A DNA stretch of 13,527 bases. Source: a virus (Duplodnaviria > Heunggongvirae > Uroviricota > Caudoviricetes). The notes under the pieces are model-generated. The model ran no database searches and was not told where the DNA came from. It worked only from the letters and a program-made list of their open reading frames with translations. Position numbers and translations under genes: made by a program. This document shows positions 189 to 13,421 of this stretch, one piece after another. Positions within the stretch are counted from its first letter, which is position 1. Each line of letters starts with the position of its first letter. Where the stretch lies: the IMG/VR virus record IMGVR_UViG_3300000553_000021, positions 1-13,527 of that record; one strand, given 5' to 3'.

Positions 189-908
189 ATGAACAAAACA
201 AGAATTACCCGTTTTATCAGCAAATACAATTTAGCTGGATTGGTTGAATCAGTAGCTTGGACTACCGATGGACAAAAATTGAATACTCGTTTTATCGCAG
301 ATGATAAGACAGTATTAGGTGAAATCACTTTAGATAACTTTAACTTTGAACAAGCTGAGTTAGGTATCTATACAACTTCTAACTTAAATAAAATGTTATC
401 AGTATTAGGTGATGATGTTGATTTAGAAGTTCAAAAGGTAGAGGACAAATCTATCGCATTAGGTTTAGGTACAGATGGTATTAAGGCAGCATATCAGTTA
501 GCTGATTTAAGTGTTATTCCAAATGTTCCTGAATTAAAATCATTACCACCATTTGATGTGGAGATTGATTTAGATGGTAAGTTTATTGACAAATTCATCA
601 AAGCTAAGAACGCATTGAGTGATGTTGATACATTCACTGTCTTAACTGAAAAAGGTAATTTGAATATCGTTATGGGTTACTCAAATGTAAACTCAAACAG
701 AATTACATTCAAAGCAGCAGAAAACTATGGTACGGATGTAAAACCTATTTCATTCTCTGCAAAGTATTTGAAAGAGATTTTAACAGCTAACAAAGAAGCA
801 ACATCTGCAAAATTATTAGTATCTACAAAAGGATTAGCTCACATTCAATTCATCATTGATGATTTCGTTTGTCGCTATTACCTAGTGGAAGTGCAACTTT
901 CCGCTTAA
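189..908 (+). CDS. DNA polymerase sliding clamp (gp45/PCNA-like)
   Basis: 239 aa, the size of a two-domain trimeric clamp, with an alternating beta/alpha pattern and a C-terminal YYLV strand. Sits between the polymerase (with clamp-binding tail) and two clamp-loader subunits. The call relies heavily on context. Confidence 0.75.
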   Translation: MNKTRITRFISKYNLAGLVESVAWTTDGQKLNTRFIADDKTVLGEITLDNFNFEQAELGIYTTSNLNKMLSVLGDDVDLEVQKVEDKSIALGLGTDGIKAAYQLADLSVIPNVPELKSLPPFDVEIDLDGKFIDKFIKAKNALSDVDTFTVLTEKGNLNIVMGYSNVNSNRITFKAAENYGTDVKPISFSAKYLKEILTANKEATSAKLLVSTKGLAHIQFIIDDFVCRYYLVEVQLSA

Positions 909-6938: not shown

Positions 6939-6983
6939 CATATGTTCCTTTATACTTATATAGGTAAAAGGAGTTAACATATG
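6939..6983 (+). promoter_or_regulatory. RBS/AUG-sequestering hairpin with putative late promoter (TACTTATA 6953-6960) in its loop
   Basis: CATATGTT (6939-6946) is the exact reverse complement of AACATATG (6976-6983, includes the ATG). CCTTT (6947-6951) pairs with AAAGG (6967-6971, SD-like AAAGGAG 6967-6973). Confidence 0.62.
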
Positions 6984-7625
6984 AAAGCAAAGTTATTAAA
7001 AATTGATTGGAAGCACTATTTTGAAATAGGTATCCTTAGTTTATTTGGTGCATGGGTTATATTTGCACTATGTTTTTCATTATATGCAGTTGGTTTGCAT
7101 TTTTTTGGTGGGGAAGGCCAAGAACAATCATTAGCAAATCAATTTAGCTGGAAATTTGATGGAACATTCAAAAATAGTCCAGGTAACATTTGGTATAATG
7201 CAGATGAACAAATTTGGGTAGAAAGTGTAACTAACGAAGTTAAAATAGGTAAGTTAGCTGGTAATAGAAAATTAGAATTTGGTGTTAAGAATATTTTAGA
7301 AGAATATTTACAAGATAAGGGATATAATTTATCTCCAAATGCACCAAACAAATTATCAGTTCAAATCATCTTTTTAGATGTTTTAAATACAAAGAAAAAT
7401 ATTTCCGTTTTCCATAGTGGTGAAGAGGAAGTTGTTATCCGTTTGAGAGGTGTATTAAAATCTCAAGGTAAAAAGGATAAGGTAGTTATAGTAGAAGAGT
7501 CCTCATCTGAAATTTCAATGAGCACATTGATAGTTGACGAAGGTGGTAGTTTCAATCAAACAAGTTTAAGTAATGCACTTAAAAAAGGTTGTGACAAGCT
7601 AATCACAAAACTATCGGAGAAATAA
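6981..7625 (+). CDS. Membrane-anchored protein with possible CsgG/HfaB-like (TolB-N-type alpha/beta) domain
   Basis: N-terminal TM helix (IGILSLFGAWVIFALCFSLYAVGLHFF). Then strand-helix (FGVKNILEEYLQDKGY), two hairpin-like segments (VLNTKKNISVFHSGEEEVVIRLRG; IVEESSSEISMSTLIV) and a final helix (SLSNALKKGCDKLI), in the same order as CsgG-family proteins. Fold call by pattern only. Confidence 0.45.
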   Translation: MKAKLLKIDWKHYFEIGILSLFGAWVIFALCFSLYAVGLHFFGGEGQEQSLANQFSWKFDGTFKNSPGNIWYNADEQIWVESVTNEVKIGKLAGNRKLEFGVKNILEEYLQDKGYNLSPNAPNKLSVQIIFLDVLNTKKNISVFHSGEEEVVIRLRGVLKSQGKKDKVVIVEESSSEISMSTLIVDEGGSFNQTSLSNALKKGCDKLITKLSEK

Positions 7626-9296
7626 ATGAAAAAATTATTAGGATTGGTATGGGTATTTTTATTAATATCTCTATCATCTTTTAGTCAATTAGTAATTAAC
7701 CAATCTTACTCACCATCAACTAATTTGAAAGTTGGTGATACCATTACGGTAACTTATAATGTGAGTGGAGCATCCAGAGCAAGATATGTGTGGTTAAGAT
7801 ATCAATACAATTCAGCAGCAATGAGTATGGTATCTAACAGCACTACATTTGGACAAGGTAACTCTACTCAAACATATTTTTATGAGTGGACAAATTATAT
7901 ATTCAATCCAAACGCAAATTCAGCAACAACTGATTTGTATGGACAATATGGACATACACCTTGGAATTATGTATCAACAACTGGAAACAATGTTGGACAA
8001 TTGACAGTTCAAAGAACGGATAAAGCAATTACAGGAACATTAGCAACTCAAAAATTTGTATTAAAAGATATCGCTTCTTATTCAAATGTTCACAAATTGG
8101 ATTTAGCATATGCGTTGGATAGTGCAACTGGAGCAAACATATCAAGTGTAACAACAACACAATCTACACTTTCATTAGGAACTGTCACAGGAGCAACATC
8201 GGCATTTACTATTAAAGTATTATATCCATCAACATATACAAATATTAATCAACACAATGTTCAATTGATGCATGTTAAAGCAGATGGTAGTATTGATTGG
8301 ACTCAACAACCAATTAAAGTAGGTTCATTGGATGCAAGTGGTATGGTAACATTCACATCTGGTATTAAAGTGGGTGATAGTGTTGGTGTATTTATTACTC
8401 CAGCTTATCAAAAAACATTTATGGATAATATTGTGACTGTTGCAGATGCATATAAAGCATTCTTAGGCATTTCACAAACCGATATTACCGGTGCACAAAC
8501 ATATTGGACATATCCTAAATTGGAAAAAATGATTGGTATGGTTGGTAAAGGTGATACTGCATTTACTGAAAAAGACCCTTATTATTTATTTGCATATGTA
8601 ATGGGGCAAGATATGAGTTCAGTAGCAAATATCCCGACATCAACTGCAACAAATATAGCATGGCATAGTGGATTATTAAATCAAAGTTGGTTAGATGGCA
8701 CACCTACTTATAGAATTTATGTAACTTCACCAAATCAAACAGTCAACGCAGTATATGCATGGGGTGGTGATATGGCATTTAATGAATCTCCATCACCGGC
8801 ACAAATTAATGTAAGTATTAATAATGGTGTTTATACAAATTCTGATAAAGTAATACCAACAACTTCTGCTACAATTAAATCATTCTCAATTAAATCTAAT
8901 GCAACATTGGCATATGACCCAGCACCATTAGATACGGCAAACTTAAACATCAATTCATCAATTGTAAATGGTAAGGTAATTTTAACTGCTAATTTAACAA
9001 AACAAAACTTAGCAGGTTTACAAGTTATTATGAATTATGATTCTACTAAATTAAGTTTGGATAATGTAACATTTGATGCAGGAAGCACAATAACAAACTT
9101 TTCAACTCACAATAACGGAAGATTAACATTTGGTTCAATTGACCAGATTAAAACTGCTAGAATTAAAACAGGAACTCCGTATACATTGACATTTACTCCA
9201 AAAGTTCCTTTATCAAATACGGCAGGTTTATTCTTCTTTGTATTGGCTGATGCAGTTGATGCAAGTGGTAATAAAATTAACCTGAATATTGAGTAA
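7626..9296 (+). CDS. Secreted protein: cohesin-like / beta-sandwich / degenerate dockerin-like / cohesin-like
   Basis: Sec signal MKKLLGLVWVFLLISLSSFS|Q. N-terminal LKVGDTITVTYNV...WLRYQYNSAAM cohesin-like start. Central VTVADAYKAF and AWGGD motifs. C-terminal AGLQVIMNYDSTKLSL...LTFGS...YTLTF...DAVDASG cohesin-like domain. Ser/Thr/Asn-rich. Confidence 0.65.
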   Translation: MKKLLGLVWVFLLISLSSFSQLVINQSYSPSTNLKVGDTITVTYNVSGASRARYVWLRYQYNSAAMSMVSNSTTFGQGNSTQTYFYEWTNYIFNPNANSATTDLYGQYGHTPWNYVSTTGNNVGQLTVQRTDKAITGTLATQKFVLKDIASYSNVHKLDLAYALDSATGANISSVTTTQSTLSLGTVTGATSAFTIKVLYPSTYTNINQHNVQLMHVKADGSIDWTQQPIKVGSLDASGMVTFTSGIKVGDSVGVFITPAYQKTFMDNIVTVADAYKAFLGISQTDITGAQTYWTYPKLEKMIGMVGKGDTAFTEKDPYYLFAYVMGQDMSSVANIPTSTATNIAWHSGLLNQSWLDGTPTYRIYVTSPNQTVNAVYAWGGDMAFNESPSPAQINVSINNGVYTNSDKVIPTTSATIKSFSIKSNATLAYDPAPLDTANLNINSSIVNGKVILTANLTKQNLAGLQVIMNYDSTKLSLDNVTFDAGSTITNFSTHNNGRLTFGSIDQIKTARIKTGTPYTLTFTPKVPLSNTAGLFFFVLADAVDASGNKINLNIE

Positions 9297-11188
9297 TGAA
9301 GAAACTACTTCTTATATTATTTTTATTAATTAGTTCAATAATAACCTACTCTCAAGGAGTGGGTTATTTGAATTATACGGTCTATAATATTATTAGTAAT
9401 GGAGCAGGCCAATATGCTAATAATGCAAATGATTTTGTTAATATGTTTGATGTTACAAAGGGTGCAACGATTTATGCAAGTGGAACATCAACAGCAGCAA
9501 AAACATTATATTTCAATGGTAGTTGGCAACCTTCTGGACTTCCCAATGGGGCCAATTATACTGGTATTAAAATAACTGGATATTTTGTCCCAAAAGAAAC
9601 GGGAACATACATATTTGGTATTGATGGAGATGATGGTGTAGATTTTTCTTTGAATGGAAATGTTGTAACATCTTATTATGGACCACATGGATTTGGTGGT
9701 TATAGATATGGTTCGGTAAATTTAGTCGCAGGTCAATCTTATACCTTTATGGCAAGATTTGAAAACTGGGGTGGTGGATGGGGTATGTATTTAGTTTGGA
9801 AAAGACCTTCACAAACAACATACACAACTCAAGGAGATGAAGTATATTCAACTCCACCTGCATCACCAACTAAAAAGGGATTGGTTGATTTTAATTTCAA
9901 TACAAATATAGATGCAACTAAATTTTCAGTAGGAAATACATTGAGTTCAACAGGTACGGTTGATATTACAAATCAATTAGATAGTAATAAAATTGTAAAT
10001 GGATATAAAGCAGGAATTACCGCCGGACAAACCGAATGGAGTTATGTGAATATATCTAATGGAACAACAACTCTTTATATAGATTTAAGAGAATTTGGCA
10101 ACACAACACCATCGACAGTTAATAGTGTTTCAATATTGGATGTATATAATGGACCGGTAACATATCAAAGTAGTGATATCTATTGGGCACATTATACTAT
10201 TCCATCAACATTAACAAAAGTAACCGATGGTAGTTCAACATATAATTCAAATATAAGAAATGCCGGATATAATAATTATGCATTCTCTTGTAATGTAGGA
10301 TTTACAGCAAATCAAATATACAAACCACAGACAATATCAGTATCAACCACAAACAATTTAACAACATTGTATAATAGTATTGTGACTGTATCGGATGTTT
10401 ATCAAGCATTCCAAGAATATTCAAATCAAGGTTTATTCGGTAATCAAACTGGAACATCTTTTACATATGGTATTCAATATCAAAACGCAGACATAGATGG
10501 AAATGGTGTTTTTGATGAAAATGATTGTTTCTTATTATTACAAAATTTGACAGGTGCAAAACCATTGGTAGATACATTCAATCTAAACAAAACATTAAGA
10601 ATTATACCACAATCAACATACGATATGATTGGTAAATCAAATTGGAATACTTTTACAAATCCATTAGGTAGTTCATATACATTTGATATAAACACAGGTA
10701 AATCAACTGATACTATAAATTTAGCAGTAGCTTGGAAAGGTGATGTAAACTTATCACATTCAACAACACCTATATCGAATAGTTATACAACAATGGCATT
10801 AAAATCAACGAGTATTACCAATCAAATCAATGCATCTATCTTAACTGAAATGGTGGGTGATAGTATTTACGCATATATTACCATAGATCCATTGACACAA
10901 TCTTTAGTTGGTACACAATTCCAATTAAACTATGATAATTCTTTGTTAAAGTTTAATGGAGTAAAGTTCACTACAAAAGGTTCACCTACTAATTACGCAA
11001 CTGATAAGGGTACTTATATTAGTGTAGGTTCATTACTTACAAATGGTGGTACTTTGGATAATACAACACAATACACACTATCATTTTTAGCTAATACAAA
11101 GTTGGATAATATATTGGGGTTAATATCAATAGGTGCAACGGATGCAGTTAATCAAAATGGAACACAATTAAAAGTGGTGGTAAACTAA
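9296..11188 (+). CDS. Secreted PA14 (GLEYA-like) lectin-domain protein with dockerin-like EF-hand and C-terminal cohesin-like domain
   Basis: Sec signal MKKLLLILFLLISSIITYS|Q. PA14 pattern ITGYFVPKETGTYIFGIDGDDGVDFSLNG...GSVNLVAGQSY...FENWGGG...LVWKRP. Dockerin-type ADIDGNGVFDENDCFLLL (about 10487-10540). AWKGDVN. C-terminal VGTQFQLNYDNSLLKF...DAVNQNG cohesin-like domain. Confidence 0.75.
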   Translation: MKKLLLILFLLISSIITYSQGVGYLNYTVYNIISNGAGQYANNANDFVNMFDVTKGATIYASGTSTAAKTLYFNGSWQPSGLPNGANYTGIKITGYFVPKETGTYIFGIDGDDGVDFSLNGNVVTSYYGPHGFGGYRYGSVNLVAGQSYTFMARFENWGGGWGMYLVWKRPSQTTYTTQGDEVYSTPPASPTKKGLVDFNFNTNIDATKFSVGNTLSSTGTVDITNQLDSNKIVNGYKAGITAGQTEWSYVNISNGTTTLYIDLREFGNTTPSTVNSVSILDVYNGPVTYQSSDIYWAHYTIPSTLTKVTDGSSTYNSNIRNAGYNNYAFSCNVGFTANQIYKPQTISVSTTNNLTTLYNSIVTVSDVYQAFQEYSNQGLFGNQTGTSFTYGIQYQNADIDGNGVFDENDCFLLLQNLTGAKPLVDTFNLNKTLRIIPQSTYDMIGKSNWNTFTNPLGSSYTFDINTGKSTDTINLAVAWKGDVNLSHSTTPISNSYTTMALKSTSITNQINASILTEMVGDSIYAYITIDPLTQSLVGTQFQLNYDNSLLKFNGVKFTTKGSPTNYATDKGTYISVGSLLTNGGTLDNTTQYTLSFLANTKLDNILGLISIGATDAVNQNGTQLKVVVN

Positions 11189-11538
11189 TGAAATGGATTA
11201 AAATTATAATAGCTTGTTGTATCATTTTTATAATATCTTGTCAAAAAGTATTAGTAGCACCGGTACAAGTAAAAACTAATAATGTATTTGATAATGCACA
11301 AAATAGTATTACAAATGGACAGGAAATACAATTCAATTTAACTAAAGATGGGGTGTATACATTAAGTTTGACCGATACAATTACCAACCAAGTTGTGACA
11401 AGAGAAAGATTTAATGGACAAATTGGAATAAATAAAAAGAAAATATACACTAAAGGGATAGAAAGTAAATATTTATATCTGTTATTGGAAGATGTTACAA
11501 AAAATAAAATAAGTAAAACAACAATAATAATAAATTAA
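11188..11538 (+). CDS. Lipoprotein consisting of a T9SS-CTD/FlgD-Ig-like domain
   Basis: Lipoprotein signal ending IIS-C18. Body IQFNLTKDGVYTLSLTDTITNQVV...GIN...IYTKGIESKYLYLLL...KTTIIIN follows the type A CTD pattern (I.F.L...G...L...D..G.VV...G.....L..G.Y.....K.II.). Confidence 0.6.
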   Translation: MKWIKIIIACCIIFIISCQKVLVAPVQVKTNNVFDNAQNSITNGQEIQFNLTKDGVYTLSLTDTITNQVVTRERFNGQIGINKKKIYTKGIESKYLYLLLEDVTKNKISKTTIIIN

Positions 11539-11539
11539 A

Positions 11540-11920
11540 ATGAGAAGAATAGATAAAATATTAGGATTAGGATTTTTAGTATCTTTAATCGCATTGAGTT
11601 GTAGAAAATCAATCGATTCAGTAGTATCTAATCCTGCACAAAATCCATTAACAATTACATCTTCGGTAGGTGTAGCATTACAAACAACATTTGTAACAAC
11701 CGATGTTAAGATGAATGTTAAAAGTGATGCAGCACAGACTGTGACTGTAAAAATATTAGATATTGCAAATAGAGTAGTTTCTAAATCAACTTCTGATGTA
11801 GTAAGTGGAGATAACATATTGACGGTTTATGCAGCAGCATTACCAACAGCAGCTTATAGATTAGCAGTATATGATAGTAAAGGTAATTTATTGGCAATAA
11901 CAGATTTTAACAAAATATAA
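11540..11920 (+). CDS. Lipoprotein consisting of a T9SS-CTD (Por secretion tail)-like domain
   Basis: Lipoprotein signal ending ALS-C21. VKMNVKSDAAQTVTVKILDIANRVV...SGDNILTVYAAALPTAAYRLAV...TDFNKI closely follows the type A CTD consensus (V...I.D..GR.V; L..G.Y...; terminal K). Paralogous to the preceding gene. Confidence 0.68.
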   Translation: MRRIDKILGLGFLVSLIALSCRKSIDSVVSNPAQNPLTITSSVGVALQTTFVTTDVKMNVKSDAAQTVTVKILDIANRVVSKSTSDVVSGDNILTVYAAALPTAAYRLAVYDSKGNLLAITDFNKI

Positions 11921-11926
11921 CAATTT

Positions 11927-12292
11927 ATGGCAAAGGCAAAAAAAGAGCAAACACCAGAAGAGGTGATGGCTAAAAATGAAAAACACAATGATGGTACAAT
12001 GAGCGGTTTGAAAAAAACTATTATTGGTACAGTCGGTACATTGGTAACAGCAGGTGGTGCATTTTTAATGACATACTTACAAAAACCAAAAGAAGGGGAT
12101 GCTAAACAAGCTCAACCTCAAAGTATTAATATCAATATTCCAGCACAACAACAAGCAGCTGGTGGTAAGACGGTTATTATTAAAGAAAAAGGACCGGCTG
12201 ACAAAGATGTAAAAAAAGCAGAAAAATCAGAACAACCAAAACCTAAAAAGAAAGAGGGTGATGAGTTCAAAGAAAAACCTGCTCAATGGTAA
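11927..12292 (+). CDS. Single-pass membrane protein with low-complexity Lys/Glu/Pro/Gln tail
   Basis: One TM segment TIIGTVGTLVTAGGAFLMTYL. Short beta-like motifs SININIP and KTVIIKE. Charged, disordered C-terminus ending in Trp. Confidence 0.75.
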   Translation: MAKAKKEQTPEEVMAKNEKHNDGTMSGLKKTIIGTVGTLVTAGGAFLMTYLQKPKEGDAKQAQPQSININIPAQQQAAGGKTVIIKEKGPADKDVKKAEKSEQPKPKKKEGDEFKEKPAQW

Positions 12293-12391: not shown

Positions 12392-12670
12392 ATGACTTTT
12401 AAGCAATGGGTAATTGACCTTTTCAAAGATGAAAGAGGTGCAATTTCAGTAAAACCAGTTATCGCATTTTTTGGTGCATTATTTTTATGTATCACTATGA
12501 TTGCGAATAGCTATTCTGCTAAAGATATCGCTCCATCTGATAAGTTAGTTGATGCTGTAATGGTTATAACTGCAATCGGTATGGGTGCTGATAGTTTAGA
12601 CAAATTCAGTAAGAAGGCGCCTGCAGATGAACCAACAACACCAGCAGCACCAACTGAAGAATTAGGTTAA
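12392..12670 (+). CDS. Two-TM membrane protein, holin-like
   Basis: Two hydrophobic segments (VIAFFGALFLCITMIANSY; LVDAVMVITAIGMGADSL), an N-terminal D..G..S.K motif and an acidic Pro/Ala tail. SD-like AAAGGAG at 12378-12384. No endolysin in the window, so holin function is unproven. Confidence 0.5.
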   Translation: MTFKQWVIDLFKDERGAISVKPVIAFFGALFLCITMIANSYSAKDIAPSDKLVDAVMVITAIGMGADSLDKFSKKAPADEPTTPAAPTEELG

Positions 12671-12687
12671 TAATTAATTAACATTAG

Positions 12688-12715
12688 AAACCCTCACAAT
12701 TAGTGGGGGTTTTTT
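12688..12715 (+). terminator. Rho-independent terminator closing the envelope-protein operon
   Basis: Stem AAACCCTCAC / GTGGGGGTTT (one G-U pair), loop AATTA, T-run 12710-12715. Confidence 0.88.
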
Positions 12716-12725: not shown

Positions 12726-13421
12726 ATGAATAACTTATTAACAATAGTAATACCGTGTAAAAACGAAAAGGATAACATATATGAGTGTATTGGATTTATT
12801 GCAAAGCAAGTGGGGTTCGCAGGAACTAGAGTTATTATTGCAGATACTTCCGATGAAGGTGATAGCTTAGATTTTTTATATTATGTTAAACGAGATTTTA
12901 AGTATTGTTTAAATATTGAAATTATCGAAGGTGGATTTCCAGCTAAAGCACGTTTAGAAGGTAGTAAATTAGTAACTACACCTTATATTCTTTTTTTAGA
13001 TGCTGATATAATGTTGCAAAATAGATTTGTATTAGGTGAATGTTTAGCATATAATACAGATTTGGTGACAGTTCCATTTCAAACAGAAGAAGGGTTTAAT
13101 TGGATATTTCGTTTATTTGATATTCAACAAAAAATGAGTAATTGGTTAGGAACACCATTTGCCATAGGTGGATTTCAATTATGGAAAACTGAAGCATATT
13201 GGAAAACCGGTGGGTATGATGAAACACATTTATTTGCAGAAGATTATTGGGTATCACAAAAAGCAGATGTAATGAAACTACATAATACCAAAGGAGTATG
13301 GACATCGGCAAGAAGATTTAAAAATAAAGGATTTTTCTATATGTTTTTAATCAGTATAAAATGCTATATCAATCGAAACAACACAAATTTCTTTAAACAA
13401 CATCACAACTATTGGACATGA
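12726..13421 (+). CDS. Family 2 (GT-A) glycosyltransferase
   Basis: LTIVIPCKNE, VIIAD, LFLDADI (DxD), GGFQLW...GGYDE, AEDY, TSARRF. Confidence 0.92.
   Translation: MNNLLTIVIPCKNEKDNIYECIGFIAKQVGFAGTRVIIADTSDEGDSLDFLYYVKRDFKYCLNIEIIEGGFPAKARLEGSKLVTTPYILFLDADIMLQNRFVLGECLAYNTDLVTVPFQTEEGFNWIFRLFDIQQKMSNWLGTPFAIGGFQLWKTEAYWKTGGYDETHLFAEDYWVSQKADVMKLHNTKGVWTSARRFKNKGFFYMFLISIKCYINRNNTNFFKQHHNYWT

Follow-up and report, generated by a model that had tools for sequence, protein, structure and literature searches.

The window analysed here is the first 13.5 kb (13,527 nucleotides) of the 79.8-kb IMG/VR virus record IMGVR_UViG_3300000553_000021 (Caudoviricetes), and all of its genes lie on the + strand. 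Between positions 6981 and 12670 it carries a cassette of eight tightly packed genes, every one of which encodes a signal peptide, a lipobox or a membrane helix. Within this cassette two genes for large Sec-exported proteins, here called cargo1 and cargo2, are followed directly by two open reading frames (ORFs), ORF1 and ORF2, that encode small lipoproteins (Table 1). The original prediction saw in the two lipoproteins the C-terminal sorting domain (CTD) of the T9SS, or type IX secretion system, split off from the two upstream proteins and encoded as separate genes. T9SS CTDs are cis-acting sorting tags that are cleaved.

Both ORFs are present where they had been predicted, and their N-termini consist of a basic n-region and a hydrophobic stretch followed by a cysteine, which is invariant in 23 relatives of ORF1 (C18) and in 49 relatives of ORF2 (C21), in agreement with the lipoprotein signal and short linker proposed for both. 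Each mature protein comprises a linker of about 20-30 residues and one beta-sandwich, and the two families are paralogs (hhalign probability 98%, E 2e-13). For each of them more than 800 relatives were found (clusters at 90% identity), measuring 105-127 residues among the matches listed (120 each), and the nearest Atlas clusters of both are viral only; the ORF1/ORF2 family is confined to phages and its members always stand alone. In PHROGs only phrog_25696, a family of no known function, was matched, by ORF2 with E 0.017, and neither megablast with the window nor tblastn with ORF1 and ORF2 gave a match among 50,697 GenBank phage records. In one database protein of 115 residues (P0306), a fragment of ribonucleotide reductase is fused to the C-terminal half of a lipoprotein of the ORF2 family, probably through an artefact of gene calling or assembly, because ribonucleotide reductase genes lie just upstream of the cassette in locus L024.

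Scans of ORF2 with hidden Markov models (HMMs) gave DUF3244 at 18.5 bits (cut-off 25), FlgD_ig at 16.7 (27), Por_Secre_tail (PF18962) at 16.1 (27) and TIGR04183 at 11 (23). Among 14 ORF2 relatives, again below the cut-offs, DUF3244 was matched by all 14 (best E 2.3e-5), Por_Secre_tail by 13 (best E 0.0024) and FlgD_ig by 11. The HMM scan proposed as a check of the original prediction therefore failed at every cut-off but yielded consistent weak matches in relatives. ORF1 had no match of its own to any of the four models and is tied to the CTD fold only via its paralogy with ORF2, so that the claim of a CTD-like domain in both proteins stands for ORF2, by profiles, model and fold matches, but for ORF1 by paralogy only. 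A profile of the ORF2 family searched against 1.84 billion representative proteins reached only 83 at E <= 1e-3, most of them stand-alone proteins of ~115-128 residues or fragments, with a lipobox in most of the full-length ones. Six bacterial proteins or fragments were also picked up by this profile, with E 1e-4 to 1e-3 and the match at the C-terminal end; these (P0307, P0309, P0320, P0312, P0302 and P0310) are assigned to Por_Secre_tail by Pfam (E 1e-9 to 1e-16) and carry genuine CTDs at their extreme C-termini. One FlgD was also reached, and profile searches of PDB sequences with either family returned nothing meaningful. The CTD-like motifs quoted in the original prediction are found in ORF2, and the consensus positions are altered as it had stated: PNP is absent from both ORFs, and the G-x-Y position reads A-A-Y in ORF2 and S-K-Y in ORF1. 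Distant family members (e.g., P0282 and P0294) carry G-x-Y. ORF2 carries a lysine, K125, two residues from its end; the close clade keeps it without exception, but the 49-sequence family does not, and in ORF1 K110 sits seven residues from the end.

An AlphaFold2 model of ORF2, built on the 49-sequence alignment, reached a confidence (pLDDT) of 89 overall and of about 98 for residues 31-126; it replaced a first model from 14 sequences (pLDDT 64), for which Foldseek gave generic immunoglobulin-like (Ig-like) folds only. Seven strands are predicted (44-47, 55-62, 66-73, 79-87, 90-97, 104-111 and 117-125 of 126 residues), and the domain ends at the protein C-terminus in ORF2 and across its 49 relatives. 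In an exhaustive structural comparison (VIA) with 48,161 PDB representatives, the top match was the T9SS CTD of mirolase (8qb1_A, Z 11.1, root-mean-square deviation (rmsd) 1.8 Å, 77 of 88 residues), with macroglobulin (MG) domains practically tied, followed among CTDs by PorU (6za2, Z 10.2), NucA in the SprA-PorV translocon (8glk_D, 9.8), FspA (8.7) and PorZ (5m11, 8.6); the DUF3244 structures 4g5a_B and 3d33_B scored Z 9.2 and 8.7. The structural similarity to the CTD fold on which the original prediction depended was thus found. With Foldseek against the PDB, generic sandwiches ranked first and no T9SS CTD appeared in the top 50. The search of AlphaFold DB clusters was more specific for the CTD than the PDB searches: about half of the top 30 matches bear the name of T9SS sorting-domain proteins, and in nearly all of these the match falls at or close to the C-terminal end, in some with an rmsd of 1.2-1.4 Å over 86 residues. 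Judged from the profile matches and the model together, the ORF2 domain belongs to the T9SS type A CTD / FlgD-Ig / DUF3244 fold group, with the CTD as its nearest structural relative.

The upstream proteins end, as had been predicted, without a CTD: neither cargo1 nor cargo2 gave a type A or type B CTD match in HMM scans, and their C-terminal domain is cohesin-like. Cargo1 matched Cohesin (PF00963) with E 2.5e-4 and 21.7 bits, below the gathering score of 24.1; cargo2 had no match to this Pfam family, and relatives of the cargo proteins carry faint precomputed Cohesin matches. Residues 357-630 of cargo2 align to residues 264-556 of cargo1 with 25% identity, which makes the C-terminal 270 residues of the two proteins paralogous. 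According to the original prediction, a cassette of this kind would be followed by the CTD in cis in many Bacteroidota surface proteins. The nearest Atlas clusters of the cargo C-terminus carry Dockerin_1 and Cohesin (Cohesin in 13-35% of members), not Por_Secre_tail.

The proposal that a CTD was split off from these cargo proteins is unsupported. No long or fused protein with an ORF2-type domain was found at a convincing score among the 1.84 billion representatives. When 185,579 bacterial and archaeal genomes were scanned for cargo relatives, a single 3.4-kb contig came up (L026; JBIPMA010000251.1, 3368 bases), with homologs of cargo1 and cargo2 at 59% and 38% identity, from a lake-sample metagenome-assembled genome of the Schleiferiaceae (Flavobacteriales). 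This contig almost certainly belongs to the same phage lineage, and no bacterial cargo relative with a CTD in cis was therefore found; its assignment to the Schleiferiaceae may be due to mis-binning, or else it hints at the host. Neither the 79.8-kb record nor two complete relatives (of 317 and 274 kb) encode a protein with an above-cut-off CTD, and the only Por_Secre_tail-like signal in them was the lipoprotein itself (14.3 bits in a six-frame scan of the record). Because the two complete relatives lack an above-cut-off CTD, there is no independent sign that the lineage uses the T9SS. In the literature on DUF3244 and on phage T9SS we found no description of a separate CTD-fold lipoprotein arrangement.

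The lipoproteins are closely coupled to the cohesin-like proteins. All 16 IMG/VR relatives, like each of the more distant contigs examined, have the lipoprotein gene directly 3' of a gene of 520-870 codons that ends in the cohesin-like domain, and the junctions between cargo and lipoprotein genes read TAATG, TAAAATG or overlapping ATGA across loci. In the window, ORF1 and ORF2 are joined to their upstream genes by TAATG and TAAAATG, respectively, and TAATG is used twice between 7626 and 11920. The 2:2 count that had been pointed out is real: two cohesin genes and two lipoproteins are kept in 16 loci of the window lineage, and a single cohesin gene with a single lipoprotein is seen in no fewer than three lineages, which are divergent and partly marine (L018-20, L021-23, L024-25 and L028). 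The single cargo of L021 and L024/25 is of the cargo1 type over its full length, and the lipoprotein (in L021 and L024) is of the ORF2 type, while in L027 the lipoprotein is of the ORF1 type and comes after a protein that is of the cargo2 type in its preserved C-terminal part. Owing to this pairing of types in relatives, the order cargo1, cargo2, ORF1, ORF2 in the window looks like a cargo2-ORF1 pair nested in a cargo1-ORF2 pair. In one sub-lineage (L016:6489-7639), two extra genes, for a 297-residue exported protein ending in F and an 85-residue lipoprotein, lie between cargo2 and the ORF1-type lipoprotein.

A complex of cargo1 (residues 264-556) with mature ORF2 (residues 22-126) was predicted, and this pair passed with a median interface score (ipSAE) of 0.66 against 0.01 for the best of three controls. 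Of 80 solved complexes 58 reached the mark applied, as did 2 of 110 mismatched pairs, a calibration that is only rough here because our own alignments were supplied. At least 96% of the contacts were shared between runs, and the pLDDT of the partner was at least 84. The predicted interface on the cohesin-like domain of cargo1 comprises residues 442-445, 470-475, 498, 529-538 and 554-556, and the invariant residues Y471, D472, T532, G534 and L535 fall within it; on ORF2 it comprises residues 78-85 and 93-102, where conservation exceeds that in the remainder of the domain (entropy 1.67 vs 2.07, Mann-Whitney p 0.02). We know of no solved complex between a cohesin-like domain and a CTD-fold lipoprotein, and it seems unlikely for this reason that the pass reflects a structure memorised by the model. 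The functional tie to the two upstream proteins that had been postulated is borne out by the fixed adjacency, the tracking copy number, the partial co-variation of types and the passed complex prediction. In ORF1 and ORF2 the CTD fold takes a new form that is specific to phages, stands alone and is lipidated, and that is coupled genetically and by prediction to a cohesin-like partner.

The residues following the lipobox cysteine differ between lineages. In the window clade they are basic (C-R-K or C-K-K; C-Q-K in ORF1), and none of 238 sequences has two acidic residues, whereas 34 of 42 distant representatives have at least two Asp or Glu within five residues of the cysteine. Acidic residues after the lipoprotein cysteine are a surface-export signal in Bacteroidota. 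The tether of the marine relatives is probably on the cell surface, because its acidic residues resemble this signal, and that of the freshwater clade, with its basic residues, probably on the periplasmic face. If the export signal applies here, the marine lipoproteins may be surface-exposed and the freshwater ones may face the periplasm.

The genes between 970 and 6931 encode an HNH/I-TevI-like endonuclease, a DNA methylase, a dUTPase, a clamp-loader AAA+ subunit, a Cpn10 co-chaperonin and a phage clamp-loader A subunit. The endonuclease gene (970-1572) is a free-standing homing-type gene (HNH, NUMOD3 and an I-TevI DNA-binding domain) between the methylase gene and the first gene of the window (189-908), which has no Pfam match. 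IMG/VR contigs with relatives of the window measure 180-333 kb, and since the two mentioned above are rated complete, the lineage consists of jumbo phages. The style of the signal peptides in the cassette suggests Bacteroidota hosts. A lone terminator-like hairpin (12686-12714) lies 3' of the eight-gene cassette, and the genes of the cassette that are relevant here are listed in Table 1.

Table 1. Features of the envelope-protein cassette in the window (positions refer to the 13,527-nucleotide window).
Feature	Position	Strand	Basis or remark
First cassette gene: N-terminal membrane helix and periplasmic domain	6981..7625	+	Lipoprotein_16 E 1.1e-4, below cut-off; always 5' of cohesin gene
cargo1: 556-residue Sec-exported protein, C-terminal cohesin-like domain; probable partner of ORF2	7626..9296	+	Cohesin match, conservation, predicted complex
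cargo1 cohesin-like domain, residues 430-556, predicted interface	8913..9293	+	Complex prediction
cargo2: 630-residue Sec-exported protein; PA14 (65-177), dockerin-like calcium loop, C-terminal cohesin-like domain	9296..11188	+	PA14 E 1.8e-12
ORF1: 116-residue lipoprotein (Cys18) with a single CTD-like beta-sandwich; ORF2 paralog, probably paired with the PA14/cohesin-like cargo2	11188..11538	+	
ORF2: 126-residue lipoprotein (Cys21), linker 22-40, CTD-fold domain 41-126	11540..11920	+	
ORF2 seven-stranded beta-sandwich, reaching the protein C-terminus	11660..11917	+	AlphaFold2 model, structural matches
Single-pass membrane protein, Lys-rich tail, conserved C-terminal Trp	11927..12292	+	3' of lipoproteins
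Small membrane protein, last gene ahead of terminator-like hairpin	12392..12670	+	

The single-pass membrane protein follows the lipoproteins directly here and in most loci, with one extra gene in between in L018 and L028. The first cassette gene, which encodes 214 residues, is a fusion of two parts that are separate in relatives: its N-terminal membrane helix is a gene of its own, of 71-80 residues, further downstream in several of them (L006:9779-9994, L007:1996-2211 and L004:3766-3996), and in marine relatives its C-terminal domain is a protein of 156-171 residues with its own signal peptide. Two further exported proteins, of 239 and 495-590 residues, are kept 3' of the cassette from freshwater to marine relatives (L002:10803-11522 and 12404-13891, corresponding to G000 14409-15128 and 16010-17497; L018:8965-9681 and 9689-11461), and the C-terminus of the larger one resembles the end of an outer-membrane barrel (last residue F in L018). 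A Pfam scan of the other cassette proteins (the exported proteins of 239, 495 and 590 residues, the 297-residue protein resembling an outer-membrane protein and the small lipoproteins) gave nothing usable. Right after the cassette lies a gene for a family 2 glycosyltransferase (12726-13421, E 2.2e-11), and next to it one for a calcineurin-like metallophosphatase (G000 13412-14140; E 3e-14, measured on the 99%-identical copy of L002); both are possible envelope-modifying genes.

We favour, at an even chance, the reading that ORF1 and ORF2 are cognate lipid tethers, each for one upstream Sec-exported protein. ORF2 would pair with cargo1 and ORF1 with cargo2, the beta-sandwich of the lipoprotein being predicted to bind the C-terminal cohesin-like domain of its partner. 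Through this binding the acyl chains would tether a large glycan-binding protein of the dockerin/cohesin type to a membrane of the infected cell, probably the outer membrane, and the purpose might be an envelope or surface assembly that the phage builds and in which the cassette's other membrane proteins take part. The reading starts from what is observed at these loci, i.e., the fold and its remote homology, the conservation of the lipobox, the paralogy, the gene order, the tracking copy number and the abutting or overlapping genes. Several points weigh against it. No curated HMM cut-off is passed by ORF1 or ORF2, and MG domains reach Z 10-10.8, less than one Z unit from the top match, so that the CTD does not stand out in the PDB comparison taken by itself. 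The binding of cargo1 to ORF2 is predicted, as a matter of model confidence with a roughly calibrated mark, for one of four possible cargo-lipoprotein pairs, and the interface positions on cargo1 are on average no more conserved than the remaining domain (p 0.88). In L018 the co-variation of cargo and lipoprotein types is mixed. The lipoprotein status, the membrane and its face are read from sequence. Finally, a tether leaves unexplained why a secretion-signal fold is used, and also how the partner of a surface version would cross the outer membrane.

It might instead be that ORF1 and ORF2 are generic Ig-like lipoproteins with some other envelope role, in a lysis or spanin-like apparatus or as a receptor mask, that their likeness to the CTD reflects only the shared ancestry of a common beta-sandwich, and that the complex was predicted falsely. 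Such a role would fit the scores of MG, fn3 and other sandwiches, which come within one Z unit of those of the CTDs, as would the richness of the cassette in membrane proteins, a weak spanin2_2 match of ORF1 (E 0.04), and an Amidase_2 endolysin-type gene ~4 kb 3' of the lipoprotein in a marine relative (L018:11794-12249), which possibly links the cassette to lysis. However, the spanin match (NF037951, ORF1 only) scores 14 bits against a cut-off of 100, the sequence profiles specifically indicate CTD, FlgD_ig and DUF3244, and T9SS sorting domains dominate the AlphaFold DB matches. In addition, few mismatched pairs reached the complex mark, and the coupling to the cohesin gene is invariant. We regard this explanation as unlikely.

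Two further explanations give the CTD fold its usual meaning. The lipoprotein could act as a T9SS signal in trans, binding the cohesin-like domain in the periplasm so that SprA/PorV of the host export the non-covalent complex. The type A CTD fold at the C-terminus, the lysine two residues from the end of ORF2, the predicted binding of cargo and the Sec signals of cargo proteins without a known outer-membrane route would all be accounted for. Lauber et al. (2024; PMC10994853) reported that CTDs are recognized through their shape and a plastic hydrophobic pocket rather than through conserved motifs, and that type A CTDs have an almost invariant, functionally important lysine near the C-terminus, and phage T9SS cargo with the CTD in cis, including a PA14 protein, has already been described (PMC7468147). 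An N-terminal lipid anchor, however, is needless for a signal and would hinder passage, the terminal lysine is not conserved in the wider family, the HMM scores remain under the cut-offs, the record and its two complete relatives encode no other above-cut-off CTD protein, and no fused ancestor was found among the representatives searched. We consider such a role quite unlikely. The CTD fold, joined to a lipid anchor by a short linker, might also be a decoy: tethered and without cargo, it would block the translocon or PorV, with the loss of gliding adhesins or T9SS-dependent phage receptors and superinfection exclusion as a result. Phage lipoproteins that block receptors exist (T5 Llp and phi80 Cor) and provide a precedent, and the basic residues after the cysteine in 238 of 238 window-clade sequences fit a periplasm-facing lipoprotein that meets the translocon from inside. 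Yet a blocking role leaves the strict coupling to the cohesin gene, the tracking copy number and the predicted cohesin interface unexplained, and the acidic residues in most distant members suggest surface exposure; we hold it to be very improbable. The broader proposition that a detachable, lipidated CTD-fold module presents a CTD-less phage protein, gripped by its cohesin-like domain, to the host type IX translocon, or else plugs the translocon, appears to us rather improbable.

Among known systems, the T9SS type A CTDs (mirolase 8QB1, PorU, PorZ, NucA/FspA 8GLK and 8GLJ) share with ORF2 a seven-stranded sandwich of ~80-85 residues at the very C-terminus and a common strand pattern, including a G-x-N turn and an aromatic residue in the fifth strand; ORF2 has its lysine two residues from the end. 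In contrast to them, ORF1 and ORF2 have no cargo in cis, the domain being nearly the whole mature protein (only ~20 residues separate it from the cysteine), and a lipoprotein signal replaces the ordinary Sec signal; in ORF2, PNP is absent, G-x-Y is altered and the HMM scores are below the curated cut-offs. The DUF3244 proteins (PF11589; 4G5A BT_1867, 3D33 BVU_0276 and 3SD2 BT_3571) are small Bacteroides proteins with a single stand-alone Ig-like sandwich like that of ORF2, for which they are the most consistent Pfam match (14 of 14 members), with 25% identity to 4g5a by Foldseek. ORF2 nevertheless stays below their gathering score, and the phage family is always coupled to a cohesin gene, whereas DUF3244 has no known function or partner. 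The anchoring of cellulosome scaffoldins by cohesin and dockerin resembles the cargo system in that a cohesin-type module docks a partner and fixes a large extracytoplasmic protein to the envelope, and the cargo proteins carry dockerin-like and cohesin-like modules. In the phages, however, the predicted cohesin ligand is an Ig-like CTD-fold lipoprotein instead of a dockerin, with the cohesin assignment below the Pfam cut-off, and the anchor is a lipid instead of an SLH domain or a sortase link. T5 Llp and phi80 Cor are, as ORF1 and ORF2 would be, small phage lipoproteins of the outer membrane expressed during infection, but no link in sequence or fold was found, and they act alone on a host receptor. 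In 'Cryophage', phage-encoded T9SS cargo, including a PA14 protein, carries its CTD in cis (Bellas et al. 2020; PMC7468147). This phage and the BFVD entries named 'Secretion system C-terminal sorting domain' resemble the window as Bacteroidota phages in which exported proteins, including a PA14 protein, are linked to the CTD fold; in Cryophage the CTD is fused to the cargo, whereas in the window the cargo has none and a lipoprotein of its own provides the CTD fold.

A very large group of uncultured jumbo phages has conserved a free-standing, lipid-anchored CTD fold whose gene is locked to that of a cohesin-like partner. Should the predicted binding be true, it would represent a new ligand of cohesins and a new means by which phages attach large glycan-binding proteins to the infected cell's envelope. 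If the T9SS is involved, its targeting or inhibition in trans would be open to experiment, and lipoproteins that carry cargo to the translocon, or plug it, would be the first use of a T9SS signal in trans and a phage strategy aimed at the T9SS. For the uncharacterised DUF3244 proteins of Bacteroides, the phage family also offers a lead by way of its partner.

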